This document shows, piece after piece, positions 6,098-58,438 of a DNA stretch of 58,438 bases (position 1 is the first letter of the stretch; each line of letters opens with the position of its first letter). A model generated the notes under the pieces. That model was not told where the DNA came from and did not search any database. It worked only from the letters and a program-made list of their open reading frames with translations. The stretch covers positions 1 through 58,438 of the IMG/VR virus record IMGVR_UViG_3300037311_000064; one strand, written 5' to 3'. The stretch comes from a virus. Lineage: Duplodnaviria > Caudoviricetes. The translations under genes and the position numbers were made by a program.

Positions 6098-6517
6098 TTA
6101 CTCCACTAACGCCAGTTGCACTGGCACTTCAAGATCAGTATTCCTTAGTCTAACAAAGATGTCAAGTACATAGGTGCCTCCTAGTACTGACACATTTACT
6201 CGGGCACTTTCAAATCTTGGATCTGTCAAGATCGAATTCAAAGCCGAAGTTTTTATTGCAAAAGCATCTTTAGTCTTTTCGCCTATTTGTAAGGTAGTCC
6301 CAATGTTGGGATGAAAAGGTAAAGAGCCTTGTTCAATTTCTAACTTAAGTCTTAGAGCTTGACCTGCGTTTGGAGCGCCTGCTACGAGCTTTAGATCTTT
6401 GAGATTGCTCATCTCTAAGTCGCCGTCACCGTTGATCTTTAAGTCAACGCCAAGCTCTTTCTCAGTTTGAGACAAGCCCTTAGTTATATTATATTGTCTA
6501 TTTCTTAGAACGCCCAT
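6098..6517 (-). CDS. gp25-like baseplate wedge / sheath initiator
   Basis: 139 aa, GDL...AGQAL.L.L...GSLPFHPNIG...DPRF pattern; sits immediately before baseplate J. Confidence 0.75.
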   Translation of the reverse strand: MGVLRNRQYNITKGLSQTEKELGVDLKINGDGDLEMSNLKDLKLVAGAPNAGQALRLKLEIEQGSLPFHPNIGTTLQIGEKTKDAFAIKTSALNSILTDPRFESARVNVSVLGGTYVLDIFVRLRNTDLEVPVQLALVE

Positions 6518-15470: not shown

Positions 15471-15498
15471 CCAGGAGATGTCTAATTTTGAGACGCTA

Positions 15499-33061: not shown

Positions 33062-34519
33062 TTATGCAGACCTTCCAATATTTTCAATAAGGAAGTGTTT
33101 GCGAGGAGTATAAACAATCGGAGTTCCGTACAAGAGCTGCATCCAGCGGTACGCAGTAGCGATAACCGCAAGGTCCATCTTCATCAACGGAGCCAATTGC
33201 TTGAAGCGAAGAGCTTCTGCATCCTTAGTCAACAGGTAAGCCTGAGAAAGACCAGGAAGCTTGTGGTTAAGGTCTCGGAGAGTAGCTGCGCCACCGACTG
33301 CTGCAGGAGCTACGAACGCGATAAACTCGTGTCCAACTGCAGAGTTACGAGGAGAGCGGTATACCGCGTAAGCGATAGCACCAGCAACACCAGCGATAGC
33401 AACATTCACTCGCTCGCCAGCAGCAACTGCCTGAGCAGCAGAAACTGGAGAAACAGGACCTTCGCCTGCCTCAGTGATAGCAGTTACACGGTAAGTGTAA
33501 GTGCCAGCATCAGCAGCAGTCATCTTTGAAAGAGCGTCAACAGCTACAGACAAAGTAGGAGCAGCAGGAGCAGCGATTCCGGCCAACGGAGCAGCAGGAG
33601 TGCGCTTAGGACGCTGGAACACGCTAGACATCAACTGGAATTCACCAGCAGCGGCTACGAAAGACTGGAGTACGAAACCAGCTTTACCAGCGGCAACACC
33701 CATTGGGTTGATACGCTCTTTAGGGAAGAACTGACGGCCAAGGTCAGAGTGAGCTTTAGTATCCATCAACATTACAGACGGAACACCAAAGTTTTCACCG
33801 ACAACTCGGGCAGCATCTTCAAGAAGATCAGAATCCATAACATCGCCACGGATGTCGCGGATAACATCTTCTTCAACACCGTAACCAGTGAAAGCCTTAG
33901 CTTTAGCAGAAGCATCAGTGTTACCTTTACGGATCTGCTTATCAAGACCTTCCCAAGCAGTGTCATCATCGAGGATGGCTGCGTCAGCACCGTCAAAAAC
34001 TCCAGAAGCAGACGCATAGTGTCCACGACCAGAAGTCAATGCACGCTCTACGATCTCAAGGATTCGCATAGTGCCGTTCTTGATTTCACGAGCGATAGCA
34101 TCGCCGTGAGCGTTTCGAACGAGCGTGTACACATGAGTCAACTCACGAGTAACGCCGATGAAACGCACTCTTTGGATCTGACGGCTGTAAGAAGCATCTT
34201 CAGATCGGGGAAGAGCGCCTTCCTTAATGAAGCCACGGCCTTGATCACCGTAAGCATCAGTTCGGTTGTACTCTTCGATAGTGTTGAAAGCTTGATCTTT
34301 ATCGATCATCGGCCACAACTTGAGATGTTTCATATCATAAGTGACAGACTTCAGAGAAGAATCCAAAGATTCTACTTGAAGCGCTCCACCACCAGTTCGG
34401 GTGTTGGGGGCACCGGCATAGGGAATGCCAGCTTCGAGGGCCTTGTTGAGTTCATCAACTTCGTTCGCAGTAGTTGCGCCGAATCCCTCTCCAAAATTTA
34501 CGAAATTATATTGGTTCAT
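33062..34519 (-). CDS. Major capsid protein (SPO1/Twort-like)
   Basis: ELNKALEAG...GGALQVESLD..LK..T, EEYN...YG..GRGFIKEG.LP, FKQLAPLMKMDLA, LLYGTP...PRK....NI; FN3-like insertion TYTYRVTA...GE; strong codon bias. Confidence 0.92.
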   Translation of the reverse strand: MNQYNFVNFGEGFGATTANEVDELNKALEAGIPYAGAPNTRTGGGALQVESLDSSLKSVTYDMKHLKLWPMIDKDQAFNTIEEYNRTDAYGDQGRGFIKEGALPRSEDASYSRQIQRVRFIGVTRELTHVYTLVRNAHGDAIAREIKNGTMRILEIVERALTSGRGHYASASGVFDGADAAILDDDTAWEGLDKQIRKGNTDASAKAKAFTGYGVEEDVIRDIRGDVMDSDLLEDAARVVGENFGVPSVMLMDTKAHSDLGRQFFPKERINPMGVAAGKAGFVLQSFVAAAGEFQLMSSVFQRPKRTPAAPLAGIAAPAAPTLSVAVDALSKMTAADAGTYTYRVTAITEAGEGPVSPVSAAQAVAAGERVNVAIAGVAGAIAYAVYRSPRNSAVGHEFIAFVAPAAVGGAATLRDLNHKLPGLSQAYLLTKDAEALRFKQLAPLMKMDLAVIATAYRWMQLLYGTPIVYTPRKHFLIENIGRSA

Positions 34520-36306: not shown

Positions 36307-36564
36307 TCACAAGCCAGTGAGCTTTTTTACTTTCTCAAGCTCTGCAAGCTTTCGTTTTGCTTTAACTATGGCCTTTTTCTCTATGGAAGTTACCGCAGCT
36401 ATGGACATTCCTAGTAGCTTTGCTATCTCCGCTAGGGTGTGAGGGCGAGTGTTTAAACGCATGTAGGTAAAGAAGCAATTGTAGTGCTCGGGGGAGTTTA
36501 CCCACCAAGCATCAGGATCTTCCTGACATCTACAAGCATCTTTGTGTACGATCTTTGCACTCAT
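36307..36564 (-). CDS. Small sigma-region-4-like HTH protein
   Basis: PHTLAEIAKLLGMSIAAVTSIEKKAIVK matches sigma70 r4 HTH; Cys-rich N-terminus; first gene of late operon. Confidence 0.7.
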   Translation of the reverse strand: MSAKIVHKDACRCQEDPDAWWVNSPEHYNCFFTYMRLNTRPHTLAEIAKLLGMSIAAVTSIEKKAIVKAKRKLAELEKVKKLTGL

Positions 36565-36748
36565 GTCTCAAATTTAGACGAAATAAGCAATTTAGTCAAG
36601 TTGCTAAAATCTCTCAACTTTTGACGGTATGCGTCATAATTTGATACGCTAGGAGCTTGACAGTGCTGTAAATCGGTGGTAATAATATATTAGCTTCTGT
36701 ATATGTAAGCTATCTGATAGTTAATAACCTATATGAATAAGCTACTAG

Positions 36749-45323: not shown

Positions 45324-45544
45324 CAAGAAAAGAAGCAAACTTAGAGTTGTTAAAGCATCTCACTGAAGCTGCAAAAACTTTTGATCAGTTAAGGTTTAAT
45401 CAACTGCTATTAGTGGTAGGGGTCGTAACTAAGTCTGACGATTTCTACGAAGAGTCTGAAGTAACTTTAGACAGAACCCTAGCTAAGCTAGAAGAGCTTT
45501 ATCTAGCTATTTTGGAGAAGCATGGTAAAGGTACAGAAGAGTAA
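45320..45544 (+). CDS. Hypothetical protein
   Basis: LRFNQLL...DDFYEES..TL pattern of a small phage family; GTGA coupling. Confidence 0.55.
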   Translation: MTRKEANLELLKHLTEAAKTFDQLRFNQLLLVVGVVTKSDDFYEESEVTLDRTLAKLEELYLAILEKHGKGTEE

Positions 45545-45872
45545 GTTCGGCAGGGGAGTTTTTACGACTCGCCCGATTAAAAAAGGTCAAACCGTTTTGG
45601 TCGATGATCTTCTATTGCTTCCGGCAAACGACTACGATAAGTCGTTGGTGATCAAGCGATACGCTTTTGCGTATGAAGACGCCTTCATGTGCTGTGCCAT
45701 CGCTTTAGGTAAAAGCTCGCTTATCAACCACTCCACTAGACCTAACTGCGATTATGAACCTACGACTGACGAAAATGGATTTCCTAAGCTCGAAGTATAC
45801 GCTTTAAAAAATATTCCAGCAGGAACCGAGTTAAAGATCGATTATGGGTACGACCCAACGGAGCCTTCATGA
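45522..45872 (+). CDS. SET-domain lysine methyltransferase (stand-alone)
   Basis: S..GRGVFTTRPIKKG, SLINHS..PNC, ALKNIPAGTELKIDYG are the canonical SET motifs. Confidence 0.9.
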   Translation: MVKVQKSKFGRGVFTTRPIKKGQTVLVDDLLLLPANDYDKSLVIKRYAFAYEDAFMCCAIALGKSSLINHSTRPNCDYEPTTDENGFPKLEVYALKNIPAGTELKIDYGYDPTEPS

Positions 45873-51943: not shown

Positions 51944-52206
51944 AACGCCCCGAGATGCGAGAGATCATCAGACAAGAACTCCTAAAAACCGTAGGCGGTG
52001 ACGCAGCCAAACACATGGCCGAAGATATCCTCTTTCTAATCGAAAAAGCCGGTATGCGACCACCTTGTTTACCTGACCAATATTGTCAAGCTTTACTTGA
52101 TGTTTACATTGACCCAAACCTAAACCAGTGGGAAGAAGAGGTAGTAAAAGACCAGAAGGTAATGGAAAGAGTAAAGCTAAGGGAAGAATGGAGAAATAAG
52201 CCATGA
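51940..52206 (+). CDS. Hypothetical protein (paralog of preceding gene)
   Basis: MKRPEM...IL..IEKAGMRPP...WE; ATG 51940. Confidence 0.6.
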   Translation: MKRPEMREIIRQELLKTVGGDAAKHMAEDILFLIEKAGMRPPCLPDQYCQALLDVYIDPNLNQWEEEVVKDQKVMERVKLREEWRNKP

Positions 52207-52937
52207 GGGTATACCGGAAGAAGTATGAGACTTTAGTTGGAAAAGTTATAAATGATAGAACTGTAATTAAAGCTTTATCAAAAGGAAGGGTTTTGGTTTC
52301 TTGCAATTCTTGTGGAGAAAAGGCTAATGTAGTAGGGACTAATATTTATAAAGTAAGATGTAAGTGCGTTAGGGAGCCTTATAAAATACACGGTTTTAGT
52401 AGCACTAGTGAGTATATATCTTGGAGATCAATGATTGAAAGATGTACAGACCCTTCACAAAAACATTATAAATTATATGGCGGAGCTGGTATTAAAGTTT
52501 GTGATCGTTGGTTAGATATCAAGAATTTTATGGAGGATATGGGTAAAAAACCAACCCCAAAACACACTTTAGATAGAAAGGATTCTACGAAAGGGTACTT
52601 TCCAGAAAATTGTAGATGGGCCACGCCAGCAGAGCAAGCCAGAAATAGAAAAAGTAATATCCTGGTAGAATTAAATGGTGAAAAGCTTTGTTTAAAAGAT
52701 TACTGCCTTGCTTTAAATGTAAATTACAACTTAGTTCGTCGTAGGTTATCTGAGGGTAAAACTCTTGAAGAAGCTGTTAAACCTATACAAACAGCTTACC
52801 TATCAAAAACATTAGATCCAAAAGAAGTCAAGAAGCTAGTTGACGCTGGTTTAACTTACAAAGAAGTAGCGAATAAACTTGGTGTCAAGTATTGGCATAT
52901 AAAACGGGTGTATCACAAGCTTAAGGGGGTAAAATGA
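52203..52937 (+). CDS. HNH-type homing endonuclease with C-terminal HTH
   Basis: EYISWRSMIERC...YGGAGIKVCDRW...F.EDMG.KP...TLDRKD..KGY.PENCRWAT..EQARN; low GC. Confidence 0.85.
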   Translation: MRVYRKKYETLVGKVINDRTVIKALSKGRVLVSCNSCGEKANVVGTNIYKVRCKCVREPYKIHGFSSTSEYISWRSMIERCTDPSQKHYKLYGGAGIKVCDRWLDIKNFMEDMGKKPTPKHTLDRKDSTKGYFPENCRWATPAEQARNRKSNILVELNGEKLCLKDYCLALNVNYNLVRRRLSEGKTLEEAVKPIQTAYLSKTLDPKEVKKLVDAGLTYKEVANKLGVKYWHIKRVYHKLKGVK

Positions 52938-53194: not shown

Positions 53195-53434
53195 CGCAAC
53201 GCGTCAAATACATACAGTCAGGATAAATATACGGTAGCCTCCTAGAAGCGCACCGTTCGCTTTCAGTTCGCTTTTCCTCGCAGGGGCGGAACTGTACCCC
53301 TATTCTATATTGCTTCAAAGTGTGATGCCTTTAGGAGCGTTTTATCACTAAAGTTTCTCTGAAATCAAATATTTAGCTTCTGAGAACTTTTAAAAAAATT
53401 TAAAAAATATTTGACCTGAAAACTTCTAGATTCA

Positions 53435-53596
53435 CGATAATAATATTATCGACGCACTGCGTCACATACAATTTTTCAAAAAATTATGAGGGAGACCCCT
53501 TAGCACCCAGTCTGGGCCGATCACTGGAAGCAGCCCATCCCCCCGTAATCATTAAGGATTCTCATATTGATACATTCACGATAATATACATTATCG
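53435..53596. repeat. Two copies of palindrome CGATAAT-N3/4-ATTATCG
   Basis: 53435-53451 and 53579-53596, both preceded by ATTCA and followed by A. Confidence 0.75.
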
Positions 53597-53808
53597 AGAG
53601 TTGTCTCATTTTGATACGCGTTTTTCTTTTTTTGAAAATTCTCTATAATGTTTGAATGCGTTTCACCGGATACCCTTTGGAGTCGTTCCAATGCGTCCGA
53701 TTGACAGCGCTGAAACTAGGCATGCATTCGGTCCAGTCTTATCAATCCTTATAATTGACAGCATTGAACCAATCTCATTCTGATACAACATGCCCTTTTT
53801 TGTCACCT

Positions 53809-53948
53809 TGTCTATAAGTTCGACAGCGCTGAAGCTATTGAATTCACTAGGCTATTCTGAAAACGGTATCATTTGACTATAAGTTCAACACTTTCTCAAT
53901 ACGAGAATCCAGTGATTTCAAGCACTTAGCTTTGGCATCGTGCATGCA
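53809..53948 (+). promoter_or_regulatory. sigma54 promoter module 1 (UAS, IHF box, -24/-12)
   Basis: TGG-CATCGTGCAT-GCA (GG 53934-35, GC 53946-47); IHF-like TTTCAAGCACTTA 53916-53928; dyads TGTCTA-N5-TCGACA 53809 and GACTA-N5-TCAACA 53875. Confidence 0.75.
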
Positions 53949-54002
53949 TTCTTATAAGGCAAGACGGTCAAGACGACGGTCAAAACAAAGGAGCGTATCA
54001 CT

Positions 54003-54287
54003 ATGAAACAGAATAATCGTGGACAGGCAGTTTGTGCCTCATTATGGAACGCGATCACTGAAGAACTCACCTTGTCTCAATATGAGAAGACAATGGGTGG
54101 GGACATGTCTTATAAGGCTAAGGCGCTTAAGGCAATGGAAGTGTCTCGTTCTAAGACAGTACAGGCATTGTGTATCGATCTGATACAGGCTTATGAGTAT
54201 CATTTTGAGCCATTGTCTTATAAGGCTGAACTAGATCAATTGAGAACGGCGCTAGGCGCTGATGTCTCAGAATGGGACGGCAACTAA
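54003..54287 (+). CDS. Hypothetical early protein
   Basis: AAAGGAG RBS; downstream of sigma54 promoter. Confidence 0.65.
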   Translation: MKQNNRGQAVCASLWNAITEELTLSQYEKTMGGDMSYKAKALKAMEVSRSKTVQALCIDLIQAYEYHFEPLSYKAELDQLRTALGADVSEWDGN

Positions 54288-54314
54288 CTTTTTTAAAATA
54301 CTTGACAGAATACC

Positions 54315-54341
54315 TCAAGTTTTGAGAAAATAGACCGATAA
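54315..54341 (+). promoter_or_regulatory. sigma28 (FliA)-type promoter 1
   Basis: TCAAGTTTT...ACCGATAA, 15 bp between TCAA and -10. Confidence 0.8.
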
Positions 54342-54392
54342 GAGATAAGAACGGCGGACGATGAACGGACGCCGAAACAAAGGAGTATCAAT

Positions 54393-55184
54393 ATGAGTCA
54401 AATTCAAGTGTTCGATAAGAATCAAGGTTTTAATGTTTCAGAACGATACAAGGCTGTCAATACAGCCCAATTAGTGTCTCATTTTGAGAATGCTGGCTAT
54501 ACGGTGGCAAGTCTCAAAACGAGTCGCGTTCGAAACGCTGAAAAACAAGGGTATCAAAAGCATCTTCTCAGATTGAGACATCCAGACTTGACGCTGAATG
54601 CCTTATCAGGATTGACGCCGGAAATCATTGTCTCAAATTCATACGATGGGACTTCAGCATTTCGTCTCATGATGGGAATTTTCCGCTTGGTCTGTGCGAA
54701 TGGTCTCATTGTGGGACAGGCTTATGAGTCAATTCGAGTCGTTCATGTTGGCGACGCATTGACTAAGGTCTTGGACGCGGCGCATCGTGTTCAAGTCCAG
54801 ACTCAAGAGATCGGGTCTCAAATCGAGACATGGTCCAAGATTGAACTCACTGATTCTCAGATTGAGTCGTTTGCAAGACAGGCCTCAAAACTTATCTTGC
54901 CGTCTCAAGATGATACGAATGTGATTCCCATTGTGAGACATCAAGACTTGCTCCGCGTTCGACGGTCGGACGATCAAGGTCGAGACCTTTGGACAGTGTT
55001 CAATCGCATTCAAGAGAATGCCTTGCAAGGCGGTCTGTCTTATAGTCGAGTCAATGAGACCGGACGCGTTCGAAACATGACAGCGCGTCGAATTCAGGCC
55101 ATTGACAGGTCTGTCCAAGTCAATCGGTCCCTTTGGGACTTAGCGTCTCAGATTGAGACTAAGGGCTTGATCACAGCGGCTTAA
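54393..55184 (+). CDS. DUF932/DUF945 family protein
   Basis: VSERY....T, KHLLRLR, PEIIVSNSYDGTSAF....GIFRLVCANGLIVG, RRSDD...DLWTVFNRIQEN...GG, VNRSLW. Confidence 0.88.
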   Translation: MSQIQVFDKNQGFNVSERYKAVNTAQLVSHFENAGYTVASLKTSRVRNAEKQGYQKHLLRLRHPDLTLNALSGLTPEIIVSNSYDGTSAFRLMMGIFRLVCANGLIVGQAYESIRVVHVGDALTKVLDAAHRVQVQTQEIGSQIETWSKIELTDSQIESFARQASKLILPSQDDTNVIPIVRHQDLLRVRRSDDQGRDLWTVFNRIQENALQGGLSYSRVNETGRVRNMTARRIQAIDRSVQVNRSLWDLASQIETKGLITAA

Positions 55185-55193
55185 TTTGATACG

Positions 55194-55226
55194 GCGCTCG
55201 TCTCAAAATGAGATGGGCGCTTTTTT
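55194..55226 (+). terminator. Intrinsic terminator built on the palindrome
   Basis: GCGCTCGTCTCA-AAA-TGAGATGGGCGC-TTTTTT. Confidence 0.8.
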
Positions 55227-55248
55227 CTGATTTTTTCGCATTCAGGCC

Positions 55249-55275
55249 TCAAGTTTTAAAACATTCGACCGATAA
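55249..55275 (+). promoter_or_regulatory. sigma28 (FliA)-type promoter 2
   Basis: TCAAGTTTT...ACCGATAA, 15-bp spacing. Confidence 0.8.
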
Positions 55276-55321
55276 GAGATAAGAACACGGTCAAGACGAC
55301 CGAAAACAAAGGAGTATCAAA

Positions 55322-56065
55322 ATGAGATTATTAACTGAAGCTCACGCGAACGCAAAAACGGCTAAAAATGAGACGATGGGTGATTTTCTGTCTTATATTC
55401 TACACTTAGCGCCTTATAAGCTTAGCGGCGTCAATGTCTGTCCCATGGCCTCAAGGGGATGCGCCGCCGCTTGTTTGAACACGGCGGGACGCGGTCGATT
55501 CGACTCAATCCAAGAGGCCCGTCTCAAAAAGACACGCCGTTTTATTGACTCACGGTCTGAATTCATGGCCGATCTAGTCAAGGACTTGACCGCCGTTGAA
55601 CGCAAGGCCTTGAAACTAGGCAAGACCGCCGTCGTTCGACTCAATGGGACTTCAGACATTGACTGGACAGTGATCAAGACAGACGACGGTCGGACAGTGT
55701 TCGAGCGTTTCAGCTCGATACAGTTTTATGATTATACCAAAGTGATACGCCGTCTCGAAAAGATGCGTCTCAATCCGATACCCAATTATCACTTGACATT
55801 TTCTCGAAGTGAGTCAAACCACGACGAGTGTCTCAAAGCGATACAGTTGGGGTTCAATGTTGCCGCCGTGTTTCAAACTGAGAATTTTCCCGAGTCGTTT
55901 CAAGGTCGTCCCATCATTGACGGTGATTCTCACGACTTGCGTTTCTTAGACATGCGTCCAGCGGACGGTCTAGGCGCATTCGTGGGACTCAAGGCCAAGG
56001 GACAAGCGAAAAAAGACACAAGCGGCTTTGTGATTCAAATTGAGACAGTTGCAAAGGCAGCCTAA
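55322..56065 (+). CDS. Phage Gp88-like protein (Cys cluster, radical-SAM-like)
   Basis: NVCPMASRGCAAACLNTAGRG, VRLNGTSDIDW, QFYDYTK, NYHLTFS.SE, DGDSHDLRFLD, VGLKAKG.A.KD.SGFV. Confidence 0.8.
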   Translation: MRLLTEAHANAKTAKNETMGDFLSYILHLAPYKLSGVNVCPMASRGCAAACLNTAGRGRFDSIQEARLKKTRRFIDSRSEFMADLVKDLTAVERKALKLGKTAVVRLNGTSDIDWTVIKTDDGRTVFERFSSIQFYDYTKVIRRLEKMRLNPIPNYHLTFSRSESNHDECLKAIQLGFNVAAVFQTENFPESFQGRPIIDGDSHDLRFLDMRPADGLGAFVGLKAKGQAKKDTSGFVIQIETVAKAA

Positions 56066-56100
56066 GCGTCTCAATATGAAACATTCTAATCAAGTGCTCC

Positions 56101-56126
56101 GCCGTCTCAGGATGAGACGGTTTTTT
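56101..56126 (+). terminator. Intrinsic terminator built on the palindrome
   Basis: GCCGTCTCA-GGA-TGAGACGGT-TTTTT. Confidence 0.8.
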
Positions 56127-56131
56127 CTTTT

Positions 56132-56474
56132 GAGTCCAGCGGTCCAGACTAGAGTCGAACGGTCTAGGCCTGTCAATGCTGGACCGTCCAGCGTTCAAGG
56201 TCTAGAGTCCGGTCCTGTCAAGGCGCGGCGTCCAGCGGTCGAGTCAAGGCCATGCGACGCGTTCAAAGGTCCAGCGGCGTCAATTCAAGGCGCGTCAAGG
56301 CATTCAGTCCAGCGGTCTAGAGTCGAGTCCAAAGGTCGAAACGCCGCGTCAAGGCCATGCATTGACGGTCAAGGTCTAGAGTCTAGGCCTGTCAATCGGA
56401 TGCCTTGCAAGGCCTGTCAATGCGTCGAGTCCGGTCCAGCGTCCAGTCAATCCGACCGATTGAATGCGTCGAAC
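56132..56474 (+). repeat. Non-coding array of strand-biased GTCNA(G) words
   Basis: About 30 GTCCA/GTCAA/GTCGA/GTCTA in ~340 bp, almost none on the opposite strand. Confidence 0.85.
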
Positions 56475-56630
56475 TATTTGACATGTCGAGAAGATCGACA
56501 AAACAGCGTTTTTCAGAGTCGAATCAATGGCTTGACTCACTTGACAGCGCTGAAGCGACTAGAAGTTCGACAGAGTCTCAATATGGGATCTGAATGTTTT
56601 CAATGGCTTAGTCGTGGCATGCATCATGCA
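56467..56630 (+). promoter_or_regulatory. sigma54 promoter module 2 (UAS, IHF boxes, -24/-12)
   Basis: TGG-CATGCATCAT-GCA (GG 56616-17, GC 56628-29); IHF-like TTTCAATGGCTTA 56598-56610 and consensus AATCAATGGCTTG 56522-56534; dyads at 56467, 56484, 56557. Confidence 0.78.
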
Positions 56631-56665
56631 TTAATAATTAATGAGAACGAAACGAGGGTATCAAT

Positions 56666-56953
56666 ATGAAACGCAGTTTCAAATTGGTACGACTTCAGGA
56701 CTTGACCGGCACTAGTGGGACCGGAGTCGTGGCTCAAGGTGAGACACAACCTGATGGGCGTACCATTATGAGATGGATTGTCCAAGCAAACTTGGCCGAT
56801 GGATCAAAACGAGAAATCAAAACCACGACTCATTATGAGACATGGCAAGATGTCGTTTTGCTACACGGTCACGGTGGGCGTACCATTTTGAGATGGGACG
56901 ACACAGGTGAGAGTGTCTCAGATTGGGACTTGCTTGGAGTCAAGGCAGCATAA
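56666..56953 (+). CDS. Hypothetical early protein
   Basis: F.LVR.QD.TG.SGTGVVA.G...DG....RW...HGHGG.T...W pattern of a recurrent phage family. Confidence 0.75.
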   Translation: MKRSFKLVRLQDLTGTSGTGVVAQGETQPDGRTIMRWIVQANLADGSKREIKTTTHYETWQDVVLLHGHGGRTILRWDDTGESVSDWDLLGVKAA

Positions 56954-56967
56954 AGGAGTGTATCAAA

Positions 56968-57030
56968 ATGGAACTATTGAGTTTGGCATTGTCTTTGCTT
57001 GTGTTCCTATATGGGACATGCTACGAGTGA
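56968..57030 (+). CDS. Candidate 20-aa hydrophobic peptide
   Basis: AAAGGAG RBS and palindrome at start like neighbours; MELLSLALSLLVFLYGTCYE. Confidence 0.4.
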   Translation: MELLSLALSLLVFLYGTCYE

Positions 57031-57061
57031 TGTATTAAAATGAGAAAGTTGACTGATTGAC

Positions 57062-57089
57062 TCAAGTTTTTCAGTCAATCGACCGATAA
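57062..57089 (+). promoter_or_regulatory. sigma28 (FliA)-type promoter 3
   Basis: TCAAGTTTT...ACCGATAA, 16-bp spacing. Confidence 0.78.
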
Positions 57090-57146
57090 GAAGTAAAACA
57101 AACCCCTAGTCTCGGAATGAGACAGGGCAAACAAAGGAGTATCAAA

Positions 57147-57638
57147 ATGGGATATACACATTATTGGACATTCAAGAAAGCGCCTCGTGGTGAGGCGGTT
57201 CAAACTGAGAAAGCGTATCAAAAAGCGATCATCGAGTGTACCAAGGTGATACAGTACTACTCCCAAGAGTTCGGCGGTCTGTCTGGTTTTTCAGCGCATG
57301 CGCCGCTTGGTCTGTATCGTGGACTTGAGGTCAATGGTTCATCCCGAGTCGGTCAATGTGAGTCGTTCTCACTTCGAGAACGCTACTCCCTGAATAAGAT
57401 TCCAGACTTTTGTAAGACCAACGCGTATCCTTATGATACAGTCGTCGTCGCTTGTCTTATCATCTTGAAACGCCGCCTAGGCGATCTCATTGAGGTACAC
57501 TCCGACGGTCGTCGAGACGACTGGAACGATGGTCTAGTTCTTGCACAGAAAGTTCTCGGATTGAAACGCTTGGGTATCCCCGAGTCAATCCGTCCCAATG
57601 TTAAGACCCCCGAACTGTCTCAGGATGAGGCAGTCTAA
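57147..57638 (+). CDS. Hypothetical early protein (MGYTHYW family)
   Basis: MGYTHYW...E.F...FCKT...PYD.VV.ACL....SDG...DW; ATG 57147 behind AAAGGAG. Confidence 0.75.
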   Translation: MGYTHYWTFKKAPRGEAVQTEKAYQKAIIECTKVIQYYSQEFGGLSGFSAHAPLGLYRGLEVNGSSRVGQCESFSLRERYSLNKIPDFCKTNAYPYDTVVVACLIILKRRLGDLIEVHSDGRRDDWNDGLVLAQKVLGLKRLGIPESIRPNVKTPELSQDEAV

Positions 57639-57648
57639 CTCCTTGTTT

Positions 57649-57684
57649 CCCCTGCCGTCTCGTAGTGAGACGGTGGGGGTTTTT
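57649..57684 (+). terminator. Intrinsic terminator built on the palindrome
   Basis: CCCCTGCCGTCTCG-TAG-TGAGACGGTGGGGG-TTTTT. Confidence 0.75.
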
Positions 57685-57715
57685 AACCTACTACCTACCA
57701 AAGGAGCGCCCCAAA

Positions 57716-58153
57716 ATGAAACAGTATACCCTCTCCGAATCTCAAGTTGAGACCCTACTTCGAGCGCTGTCCAACGAGTCGAGCGTCGATCAAGAACTAG
57801 AGTCAAGGCGCGTCTTGACACCCGAAGACATCCGAAGTCGGGCCAAGGCAAGAGTCGAGATCAAGCGTCTACTCCGTGGACAGTTGACGCCGGTCGTACT
57901 CCCCGAAGTGAAACGCGCTATTGATAAGGCCTTGACAGTGTTCGACGAGTCCCTAGTCAATGGTCTAGGCAATGGTCAAGACGATGCATTGACAGCGATG
58001 GACTCCGAACTAGTCCAGCGTCCCATGCGCGAAGCAAGGGCCAAGCTGTATAGCGCGGCGTCGGAGTTTTGTTTGCAAATAGGCCTCAAGTTTTCGAGTG
58101 ATTCTGCCGATAAGAGTGAAACAAACCAGGAGGATCAAAATGAAACAGTCTAA
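57716..58153 (+). CDS. Hypothetical early protein
   Basis: ATG 57716 behind AAAGGAG. Confidence 0.6.
   Translation: MKQYTLSESQVETLLRALSNESSVDQELESRRVLTPEDIRSRAKARVEIKRLLRGQLTPVVLPEVKRAIDKALTVFDESLVNGLGNGQDDALTAMDSELVQRPMREARAKLYSAASEFCLQIGLKFSSDSADKSETNQEDQNETV
58086..58113 (+). promoter_or_regulatory. sigma28 (FliA)-type promoter 4 (inside preceding ORF)
   Basis: TCAAGTTTT...GCCGATAA (consensus -10), 16-bp spacing. Confidence 0.8.
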
Positions 58154-58355
58154 TGTGATCAAGCTTGTGCCTCGAAATGAGAATTTTAACGAGGACCTAG
58201 TGATGGTCCAGAACTTGCAACAAATGATCGATGCTCTCGTTTTGAAACACGGTGCGCATTTAGTCCTTGCAAACTTGCCGAGCATGGTGCAAGATGCACA
58301 GACCAAGGCCCGAGCATCGAGACAAGAAGTCAAGCAAAGAAAGGTAGGCTCATAA
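58140..58355 (+). CDS. Hypothetical early protein
   Basis: ATG 58140 behind AGGAGG. Confidence 0.6.
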   Translation: MKQSNVIKLVPRNENFNEDLVMVQNLQQMIDALVLKHGAHLVLANLPSMVQDAQTKARASRQEVKQRKVGS

Positions 58356-58438
58356 TGGGACAGTCAAAGGTTTTTATTGCAAGGCATCAACTAGGTGCCC
58401 GACAGTGGTTCACCGTCTACATTGACGGTCTTGAGTGT
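58355..58438 (+). CDS. Hypothetical protein, truncated by window end
   Basis: TAATG coupling; MGQSKVFIARHQLGARQWFTVYIDGLEC... Confidence 0.45.
   Translation, partial: MGQSKVFIARHQLGARQWFTVYIDGLEC

Follow-up and report, generated by a model that had tools for sequence, protein, structure and literature searches.

In lambda, the iterons of the replication origin lie inside the initiator gene; in phiC31 (conserved inverted repeats) and P1 (C1 operators), one regulator is served by about 15–20 dispersed sites near early promoters and terminators; and in Cluster K mycobacteriophages, a short conserved motif is fixed just upstream of many start codons. The stoperators of temperate phages, which lie at gene boundaries too and are oriented with transcription, bind a monomeric immunity repressor, occur at about 0.5 per kb and block elongating RNA polymerase. 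In Cluster A, they are described as asymmetric repressor sites of 13–14 bp found beyond promoters and genome-wide (PMC9283540). The account of the Cluster O mycobacteriophages (Corndog), which also mentions the start-associated sequences of Cluster K, gives 34 copies of a 17-bp sequence, TGTTCGG-N3-CCGAACA, in a 7-3-7 arrangement, about one-third of them in coding sequence and with function unexplained there (PMC4351075). These 17-bp dyad repeats are the closest precedent for the element that we describe here, a carpet of 15-bp palindromes, GTMTCA-N3-TGAKAC (GTMTCANNNTGAKAC), at the right end of the IMG/VR virus record IMGVR_UViG_3300037311_000064 (58,438 bases, linear class, CheckV completeness estimate 50%; the whole stretch was analyzed and is called the window below). 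The likeness to Cluster O is one of architecture only: inverted halves, a 3-bp A/T spacer, and many copies with some in genes are common to both, and in all seven islands of the palindrome that we found the sequence differs from TGTTCGG-N3-CCGAACA. In limited literature searches, in which the half-sites matched only primers, no description of a carpet of this density was found, and nothing closer than Cluster O.

The palindrome carpet and its anatomy

The motif is matched 37 times with at most one mismatch in the whole window, against 0.39 expected from 100 dinucleotide-preserving shuffles of the window (standard deviation 0.57, largest value 2), and 32 of the 37 matches fall at 53559–57753, i.e. 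within 4.2 kb; the five outlying matches start at 6459, 15480, 36565, 38794, and 43970. Counted from 53300 onward and before it, the sites number 4 and 0 with no mismatch, 28 and 5 with one, 23 and 6 with two, and 16 and 51 with three, the last class being at background level. At two mismatches or fewer, the last 5.1 kb hold 55 sites and the other 53.3 kb hold 11. All 32 coordinates given in the initial annotation, which had been made from the letters of the window, match GTMTCANNNTGAKAC within one mismatch, and its estimate of about 20 more within two agrees with the 23 counted here.

53559..58361, no strand: window part of the palindrome island, 55 sites with at most two mismatches, 10.7 per kb, cut by the contig end
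Site starts: 53559, 53603, 53772, 53995, 54074, 54143, 54172, 54197, 54264, 54385, 54435, 54476, 54511, 54565,
54630, 54664, 54703, 54815, 54854, 54902, 54925, 55145, 55178, 55200, 55314, 55360, 55521, 55707,
55734, 55767, 55830, 55870, 56032, 56068, 56104, 56575, 56658, 56676, 56731, 56760, 56827, 56880,
56915, 56960, 57032, 57109, 57139, 57238, 57425, 57457, 57617, 57657, 57739, 58132, 58347

In the relatives, the island extends about 2 kb further than this window part. Its genes in the window, all on one strand, are the following seven coding sequences (CDS; lengths in amino acids, aa):

54003..54287, plus strand: first island gene, 94 aa, no family; 5 sites
54393..55184, plus strand: DUF932 protein, 263 aa, PF06067 (E 4e-36); 12 sites
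55322..56065, plus strand: GP88-family protein, 247 aa, PF17338 (E 7.8e-45); 8 sites
56666..56953, plus strand: 95-aa protein, phrog_7499; 6 sites
57147..57638, plus strand: gene X, 163 aa, no family; 4 sites
57707..58153, plus strand: acidic protein, 148 aa, no family; 2 sites
58140..58355, plus strand: 71-aa protein, no family; start-associated site at 58132

Wholly within these CDS (3264 bp) lie 20 sites with at most one mismatch and 37 with at most two. Shuffling synonymous codons with the proteins kept gave 1.67±1.19 (maximum 6) and 7.31±2.09 (maximum 13) sites, respectively, and shuffling codon order gave 0.05 and 0.45 (500 shuffles each); because both give far fewer sites than observed, codon choice and amino-acid sequence must be driven by the motif. 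The sites occur in all three frames (offsets 2, 1, and 0 hold 17, 16, and 4), with TGG, CGA, or TCA in place of TGA at the 4 sites whose frame would turn it into a stop codon, and peptides with their imprint are present: LSQYEK, VSHFEN, GSQIET, DSQIES, ASQIET, PSQDDT, and LLRLRH. The claim of the initial annotation that sites in different frames shape the proteins (SQxE, SHFE, and LRLR) is thereby borne out, and the enrichment stands on two of the checks that it had named, codon-preserving shuffles (1.67 against 20 sites within CDS) and the density in the rest of the genome. Inside and outside genes, the density is alike (37 sites within the 3264 bp of CDS, 18 within about 1.9 kb of other sequence). 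There is a negligible chance that base composition, codon usage, or a recurrent peptide gave rise to the carpet as a by-product: the island is richer in G+C (0.46–0.49 vs. about 0.42) and has several other skewed words, but shuffles of dinucleotides, of synonymous codons, and of codon order fall short by 10- to 400-fold, and sites stand in three frames and in noncoding DNA at equal density. A compositional artifact is excluded as the source of the carpet.

The count matrix of the sites is a dyad, Y-GT(C/A)TCA-www-TGA(G/T)AC-R, whose left and right halves mirror each other; as the dyad is symmetric, no orientation can be defined for a site. The spacer is strictly 3 bp: of the exact half-sites in the island, 27 of 30 left ones and 20 of 21 right ones are paired at this distance, and none were found at any other spacing from 0 to 11. 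The distance between sites is irregular (18–471 bp, median 53.5), with no 20-bp, helical, or other periodicity among the sites of the window (R≤0.12). Halves of the same site do not covary. In the window, there are 4.82 complementary positions per site, against 4.86±0.07 when the right halves are shuffled among sites, and among 488 sites from the seven islands a full 6-bp stem could form in 68 (14%), against 94±7 with shuffled halves; C or A at position 3 is independent of G or T at position 13 (chi-square P=0.28). It should be noted that this test is conservative with respect to pairing, as the sites were chosen by their likeness to a palindromic consensus. The compensatory base-pair changes expected of an RNA hairpin are nevertheless absent, pairing being no better than with shuffled halves, and hairpins are unlikely because the halves do not covary. 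Both the independent variation of half-sites at a fixed 3-bp spacer, as had been proposed at the outset, and the preference for a dimer's site on double-stranded DNA (dsDNA) over a hairpin, are supported by these counts and by the selection at the DNA level described below.

Conservation, turnover and spread across phages

Synteny links the window to a 78-kb relative (G001, at 9.6–67.2 kb of that record) and to a complete relative of 117,954 bases (G005), the record of which closes on a 122-bp overlap; as both continue beyond it, the right end of the window is a mere contig end. The island of G001 spans 63,250–70,290 (37 of its 38 sites with at most one mismatch), with 8 kb more sequence beyond, and that of G005 lies at 85.8–93.4 kb of 118 kb (29 of 34 sites at one mismatch or fewer, 83 of 108 at two or fewer). 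G002 has 14 of 16 such one-mismatch sites at 289–1855, at a contig end. A scan of IMG/VR (2.9 million contigs) with a two-site pattern added four further carpets (G008–G011). Two of these records are complete, G009 (175,837 bases; island at 48–60 kb, 32 of 34 and 89 of 115 sites at one and two mismatches) and G010 (168,807 bases; island at 135–146.2 kb, 29 of 31 and 79 of 93); G008 has 80 sites at a contig end, and G011 has 28 sites in 4 kb in an island bounded on both sides. The capsid proteins of G008, G009, and G010 have only 29–30% identity to that of the window, for which reason we place these three in a second, deep lineage, the carpet phages thus comprising two myovirus lineages. All seven islands have the same consensus, GTCTCA-www-TGAGAC, at 6.4–10.9 sites per kb and with AAA, TTT, and ATT as the commonest spacers.

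Between the window and G001, four genes could be compared site by site, with 30 and 26 sites, respectively, 18 of them at the same aligned position; in gene X, each phage has 4 sites and none is shared. Synonymous third positions are conserved at 74 of 90 (82%) in site cores, against 245 of 458 (53%) outside (Fisher P=1.8e-7). On these alignments, individual sites are under purifying selection, and their number is kept up through gain and loss.

The island has a recurrent gene content: GP88 is found in seven of seven islands, X in six, and DUF932 and a 201-aa zinc-ribbon/coiled-coil protein in five each. The genes X, DUF932, and GP88 also stand together behind one sigma-28-like promoter in G007, a complete 55-kb record without capsid homology, where all four sites with at most one mismatch lie within the first 8.5 kb. 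GP88 falls into subtypes (22–27% vs. 53–84% identity) that do not follow the capsid tree, and DUF932 likewise, whereas X has 59–71% identity throughout the islands. Among the 31 ORFs (open reading frames) of G005 common to G009 and G010 (median identity 31%), X is second in conservation (65–71%), behind ribonucleotide reductase, and it is the only one of them that exceeds 50% identity and is also found in G007. Homologues of X with at least 56% identity accompany the motif and those with 47% and 43% (L012 and L013) do not; the GP88 proteins of L012 and L013 are closer to the GP88 of the window than that of G005 is, yet these loci lack the motif. Of the island proteins, X follows the motif most closely from phage to phage. 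Its family has at least 151 homologues, all unnamed, and an invariant N-terminus, MGYTHYW.

In 80 other GP88-bearing loci, the carpet was seen in G001 only. The palindromes embedded in promoters at such loci, about 1 per kb, were considered and set aside as ordinary operators or promoters rather than a carpet. The GP88-bearing contigs L085 (560–5987), L046 (554–7372), and L056 have repeated cassettes of early promoters that are their own: one has an operator, ACCGGT-N4-ACCGGT, exactly between TTGACA and GTTATA in 9 copies, another an extended -10 element, TGATATAATGG, in 11 copies, and the third TGTTGT-N6-ACAACA about once per 1–2 kb.

As to the genome that carries the carpet, structural genes occupy positions 1–36,261 of the window on the minus strand, including the major capsid protein (33062–34519), and the plus-strand genes run from 36,928 to the end, with products that include a class IV aminotransferase, ThyX, a tyrosine recombinase, an exonuclease, a peptide deformylase, a UDG-family protein, a SET-domain protein, an AAA ATPase, and HNH endonucleases. 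The phage-encoded SET-domain protein (45522–45872, 116 aa, PF00856, E 5e-17) lies among the genes for ThyX, peptide deformylase, class IV aminotransferase, and tyrosine recombinase. A DNA similarity search with the window found no match among isolated phages. The capsid protein search reached only about 34% identity at best, to SPO1-like Bacillus phages, and the matches of GP88 in bacterial genomes (at most 50% identity) are scattered over many phyla, mostly in metagenome-assembled genomes; for both reasons, no host is called. DUF932 proteins of isolated phages, jumbo phages and others, have at most 34% identity, and nothing functional emerged from the DUF932 papers listed.

The initial annotation had called the island an early region, which is plausible: the genes are small and have their own promoters and terminators, and the island of G001 runs straight into homologues of rIIA and rIIB (L010 10854–12920 and 13288–14256), which are early genes in T4. 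The homologues in G005 are at 83883–85940 and 82591–83511, and in G005, G009, and G010, i.e. in both lineages, rIIA and rIIB adjoin the island in synteny, on its downstream side; the rIIB-like protein is unusually well conserved between the lineages (51–58%). A GHKL ATPase and its partner beside the island, considered as a MORC-like compaction pair, proved to be these rIIA and rIIB homologues. The islands of G001 and G005 contain an AAA_25 helicase-like gene, and the primase-helicase and DNA polymerase genes of G005 are about 35 kb from its island.

Other repeats are found in and around the carpet. A second palindrome, GTCTTATAAGRC, has a half-site like that of the main motif and no spacer, and occurs at 53950–55425 of the window (e.g. 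54106, 54213, 55036, 55390, and 55413); its core, CTTATAAG, is present 4 times in the island and 0 times in the other 53 kb, and it too shapes peptides (SYKA twice in the first island gene). Two copies of an AT-rich palindrome, TCACGATAATA..ATTATCG, at about 53432–53454 and 53576–53599 in the 0.8-kb intergenic region before the island, are interleaved with the first carpet sites and may be operators of another regulator. The sole 471-bp gap in the carpet is a repeat-laden stretch (56120–56560) with the words GTCCAGCGGTC, GGTCTAGAGTC, and CCTGTCAATGC and an imperfectly duplicated segment of about 174 bp; one frame across it is open (56040–56669), but the stretch looks noncoding and has no nucleotide-level counterpart in G001. 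An analogous block of 11–13-bp tandem repeats is found in the G009 island (L257 5984–6263).

Placement of the sites and readings of the array

Outside the reading frames, sites coincide with several kinds of expression signals, which are given here together with the isolated sites of the structural arm:

53559..53617, plus strand: two sites in the 0.8-kb intergenic region before the first gene, their right halves TTGATA coinciding with -35 hexamers
53995..54009, plus strand: start-associated site; the ATG of the CDS at 54003 is motif positions 9–11, and the Shine-Dalgarno sequence GGAG ends at position 1
55193..55221, plus strand: terminator-like hairpin after DUF932; the stem-loop core is the palindrome (site 55200) and the 3-nt loop its spacer
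56101..56121, plus strand: terminator-like hairpin after GP88, built on the perfect site 56104
57649..57679, plus strand: terminator-like hairpin after gene X, built on site 57657
54315–54342, 55249–55276, 57062–57090, and 58086–58114, plus strand: sigma-28-like promoters (TCAAGTTT, 12–13 nt, CCGATAAG)
36565..36579, no strand: isolated site abutting the start codon of an 85-aa Sigma70_r4-only gene (36307–36564, minus strand)
15480..15494, no strand: isolated site between two structural-arm ORFs

The two first sites overlap sigma-70-like promoters at 53567–53594 and 53611–53639, which are consensus matches only. The register of the start-associated site is repeated at 54385, 55314, 56658, 57139, and 58132, so that six of the seven CDS starts have it, the exception being the CDS at 57707; in such a register, an optimal ribosome-binding site and a binding site overlap without cost. 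All three of the strongest terminator-like hairpins of the plus strand have the palindrome as their stem-loop core. Each of the four sigma-28-like promoters has a palindrome within 20–45 bp downstream, and the site at 57109 covers nucleotides 12–26 after the -10 element. The label rests on what we take to be the sigma-28 (FliA) consensus, TAAAGTTT, 11–12 nt, GCCGATAA. These promoters occur only in and just beyond the island, eight of them on the minus strand in G005 (L114 83541–91743), and another is found at about 3890–3923 of L014; the four islands of the 170-kb lineage are mostly without them. As no Sigma70_r2 domain was found over cut-off in the complete relative G005, the early genes may depend on a flagellar sigma factor of the host.

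A counterpart of the isolated site at 36565 is present in G001 and G005, at one to three mismatches and in a divergent control region. The 85-aa protein beside it consists of little beyond a sigma-70 region 4 helix-turn-helix (HTH; PF04545, 26 bits) and stands at the head of the structural arm, its gene apparently leaderless behind a TTGACA-N17-TAAATT promoter. Sequences with one mismatch and near-identical to the site at 15480 are found in G002 (17282) and G003 (11572). G009 has five repeated promoter-like cassettes with a degenerate site (two to four mismatches) at a fixed place beside TAGAAT, a weak resemblance.

Very probably, the sites of the carpet all serve a single dimeric dsDNA-binding protein and have been selected for number. 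A dimer's site is preferred to a hairpin because the 3-bp spacer is strict, halves are rarely orphaned, and covariation is absent. Starting from the observed sites, their selection at the DNA level, their conservation and turnover, and the lack of hairpin covariation, we infer the binding of a protein, its dimeric state, a repressive effect, and the timing and function of that effect along the following lines. One homodimeric, two-fold symmetric protein would recognize the palindrome, with selection acting directly on the DNA and on how many sites there are; these would be placed wherever coding allows, freely in two frames and with TGA changed to TGG or CGA in the third, and would be set at no cost onto regions of ribosome-binding sites and ATG codons and onto terminator stems. 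With the protein present, a site would be occupied every 50–100 bp over 5–11 kb. Promoters would be occluded, given that sites overlap -35-like hexamers and sit just downstream of sigma-28-like promoters, and further sites would act as serial roadblocks to transcription along the island. An early accessory module that consists of GP88, X, DUF932, and small ORFs and lies upstream of rIIA/rIIB would thereby be silenced or shut off in an all-or-none, timed manner. We put forward this whole statement, repression by promoter occlusion and serial roadblocks with a binder that travels with the module, tentatively, as possible and somewhat short of probable. It draws on the two sites on -35-like hexamers, on the conserved isolated site at the start of the r4-type HTH gene, and on the same palindrome in tandem in winged-HTH (HTH_36) initiator genes of other contigs, a precedent for its use as a protein-binding site. 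A phage-encoded binder that travels with the module seems to us more likely than a host-encoded one.

Several observations weigh against repression of this kind. Most sites are not near promoters, and a few operators suffice to control a promoter, whereas the island has 10 per kb; a transcriptional role was judged unlikely for the similar Cluster O repeats by their authors for the same reason (PMC4351075). The island genes must still be expressed at some stage. No DNA-binding protein was found to co-occur with the carpet (Sigma70_r2, HU, and ParB_N stayed below cut-off), HTH_3 gave a single weak sub-threshold match, in the window, and HTH_36 (PF13730, E≤1) was absent from G000, G001, G005, G007, and G008. 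The 85-aa Sigma70_r4-only protein was rejected as a universal binder, since neither G009 nor G010 has its family. In X, residues His, His, Asn, Lys, Asp, and Cys are invariant; the protein lacks an HTH and looks enzyme-like, and its profile found no match in the PDB.

X is nevertheless the sole phage-encoded lead for the binder, because of its conservation and its co-occurrence with the motif across phages. Relatives in the PDB were likewise not found by sequence for the 94-aa protein, GP88, and DUF932, and the ESM Atlas neighbors of X and the 94-aa protein are hypothetical proteins. The r4-type family, found in G001 and G005, was not found in G007 either. ParB_N gave no match over cut-off in five records (G000, G001, G005, G009, and G010); one sub-threshold match in G010 contains stop codons. 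An HNH endonuclease gene just upstream of the island (52203–52937), a further candidate, has no nucleotide-level counterpart in G001.

The same palindrome is in use elsewhere. The two-site scan of IMG/VR returned at least 117 stretches; among the matches listed, to which all counts in this paragraph refer, seven are carpets, 102 have at least two sites within 60 bp, and eight do not. The largest arrays consist of 5–9 near-perfect copies with a period of 17–32 bp, and an ORF of at least 120 aa lies over the array in 78 of the 102 loci. HTH_36 was found in 35 of these 78 ORFs, and single or few ones match Phage_rep_O (E 1.4e-20), DnaT, DnaD_N, or DnaB_2; by BLAST, the proteins of 37 loci fall into a single cluster with a length of about 281 aa, and a cluster of DnaB-like helicases lies about 1.1 kb from the array in 16. 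Arrays encode SQxET repeats in the consensus of the initiators and, by analogy with lambda, are apparent origin iterons. Examples in HTH_36 or O-like genes, with about 100 other loci, are:

L173, 2378–2587: array
L154, 9597–9805: array
L191, 4043–4187: array
L146, 11286–11368: array

If the carpet sites were themselves bound by a replication initiator, the island could be a diffuse origin or loading zone, or a sink for the lambda-O-type initiator of another element in the same cell, such as a resident prophage, a satellite, or a co-infecting phage, whose replication would thereby be blocked or hijacked. The identical palindromes in HTH_36 genes elsewhere, whose role as origins is a presumed one, are common ground, as is the C/A degeneracy of position 3 (though the search pattern allowed it); the DnaB-like helicases near the arrays, the AAA_25 helicase-like gene in the islands of G001 and G005, and a selection on site number that fits titration all agree with such a use. 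However, the carpet has neither a tandem period of about 20 bp or a helical one nor a place in or beside an O-like initiator gene, its spacing being irregular; the primase-helicase and DNA polymerase of G005 are far off; and no initiator of the array type was found in the carpet phages by tblastn, by PF13730 (in the five records named above), or by a hidden Markov model of the initiator N-terminus, which in profile–profile comparison with seven island families reached a probability of at most 2.2%. Any query palindrome would find some user among so many contigs, and that iteron and carpet phages share hosts is an assumption, so that the shared sequence may be a coincidence, or the carpet may address the O-type class of initiators. 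We regard the initiator explanation as unlikely, and its special form as a decoy, in which a large lytic phage would use about 100 iteron copies per genome to soak up or appropriate the lambda-O-type initiator of a rival element in the same host, as more unlikely still. The initial annotation had instead supposed that the first-entering DNA attracts many copies of one protein, probably the host's, there to cloak it from nucleases, to localize or pull the genome, or to sponge a master regulator. One conserved host factor would explain why phages with about 30% capsid identity share a consensus that is also found, at low copy, in the third type, G007; it would further suit the failure to find a phage-encoded binder, the sigma-28-like promoters without a recognizable phage sigma factor (hence with the use of host machinery), and, for a sponge, the selection on site number. 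The entry part of this proposal is not supported, as the island is internal in all three complete records, G005 (86–93 of 118 kb), G009 (48–60 of 176 kb), and G010 (135–146 of 169 kb), with the 8 kb beyond it in G001 and the window end being a contig end; and the motif travels with one gene set (GP88 in all islands, X in six of seven) rather than genome-wide, as a cloak would need, while the 170-kb-lineage islands mostly do without the sigma-28-like promoters. Recruitment of a host protein is improbable, to about the same degree as the use of the carpet by an initiator.

Two further explanations have far less to recommend them. Hairpins or protein-binding sites in mRNA that control translation starts, termination, or decay, after the manner of T4 RegA or RegB, would account for the fixed register at six of seven CDS starts (ATG at positions 9–11), for the three best plus-strand terminators, and for the single strand of all island genes; but these places are equally cost-free locations for a DNA site, sites within CDS are in all frames as dense as those outside, isolated sites are conserved in control regions beyond the island, and the stems lack compensatory changes. 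We consider an RNA-level element very unlikely. No better is the prospect that the sites are 15-bp microhomologies which promote the shuffling of accessory modules within and between phages, as T4 PeSL cassettes do. The island is a mosaic, in which neither the subtypes of GP88 and DUF932 nor the similarity of X mirrors the capsid phylogeny, gene order differs among the window, G001, and G005, and two contigs break inside it. Deletions between repeats are also reported for Cluster O (PMC4351075). Microhomology would nonetheless need neither the site-by-site synonymous selection nor a strict fixed-spacer dyad, and a gain in evolvability would weigh little against the cost of altering proteins.

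If one protein does dock every 50–100 bp over 5–11 kb, the carpet would amount to a chromatin-like, sequence-addressed domain on a phage genome, under a selection strong enough to rewrite proteins, constrain synonymous sites, and survive transfer between lineages with about 30% capsid identity. A 15-bp site and a small gene set would then form a portable system for studying the silencing, timing, and shielding of accessory early genes. Were the decoy true instead, the palindromes would be weapons in a conflict among phages or with satellites, written into an exchangeable accessory module; the identity of palindrome and iteron makes the decoying of each other's replication proteins directly testable.

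Comparison with described systems

ParB–parS, Noc, SlmA, and MatP–matS resemble the carpet in having palindromes that are tolerated in genes and a function that comes from many copies per domain; their site densities are orders of magnitude lower, no ParB_N protein of the ParB–parS or KorB type was found over cut-off in the carpet phages searched, and, to our knowledge, none of their consensus sequences matches the carpet palindrome. The sites of phiC31 and of P1 C1 differ in being intergenic, about tenfold fewer, and not written into coding sequence. Compared with Cluster K, only 6 of the 55 carpet sites are linked to starts, and these are ordinary members of the palindrome family. The host-takeover module of SPO1-like phages is marked by its place in a long terminal redundancy with defined ends and double read depth; for the carpet, the closure of G005 on a 122-bp overlap gives no physical ends. 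Lambda-type iterons have the same palindrome in coding sequence, where it shapes the protein (SQxET), and by analogy would be bound by a dimeric winged-HTH protein; they differ as 3–9 tandem copies with a period of 17–32 bp in one gene beside a helicase, against 55–115 irregular copies over many genes in the carpet.

Stoperators are the mechanistic model for the proposed silencing, and the carpet is unlike them in being symmetric, restricted to an island, about 20 times denser, and without a known repressor. Its site is a dyad rather than an asymmetric sequence; instead of a genome-wide spread, 29 of 34 (G005), 32 of 34 (G009), and 29 of 31 (G010) sites with at most one mismatch are in the island. 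Searches for a phage-encoded repressor with HTH_3, HTH_36, HU, and ParB_N gave nothing above cut-off; many small ORFs have no family.

The resemblance is closest with Cluster O, where the account describes inverted halves around an exact 3-bp A/T-rich spacer (AAA and TTT commonest there too), dozens of copies with one denser region, some loss and gain between relatives, a dimer as the likely binder, and a motif reported as absent from other phages (PMC4351075). According to the same account, the Cluster O copies are nearly invariant and spread through the genome, denser toward the right end (PMC4351075), whereas the carpet has 55–115 degenerate copies, about 80% of them within 5–11 kb at 6–11 per kb. 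Its sites are fused to start codons and terminators, its sequence, GTCTCA-www-TGAGAC, is a different one, and hosts and phage types are unrelated. An explanation of the carpet would also provide a starting point for understanding the dyad repeats of Cluster O. The initial annotation knew of no description of such a system, a statement that has to yield to the Cluster O 7-3-7 palindromes and the lambda iterons as precedents and that keeps its force for the density, about 10 times that of either. What is new against these precedents is thus a roughly tenfold density, the confinement to an exchangeable island, the fusion of sites to start codons and terminators, and the recurrence of the same carpet in distant lineages.

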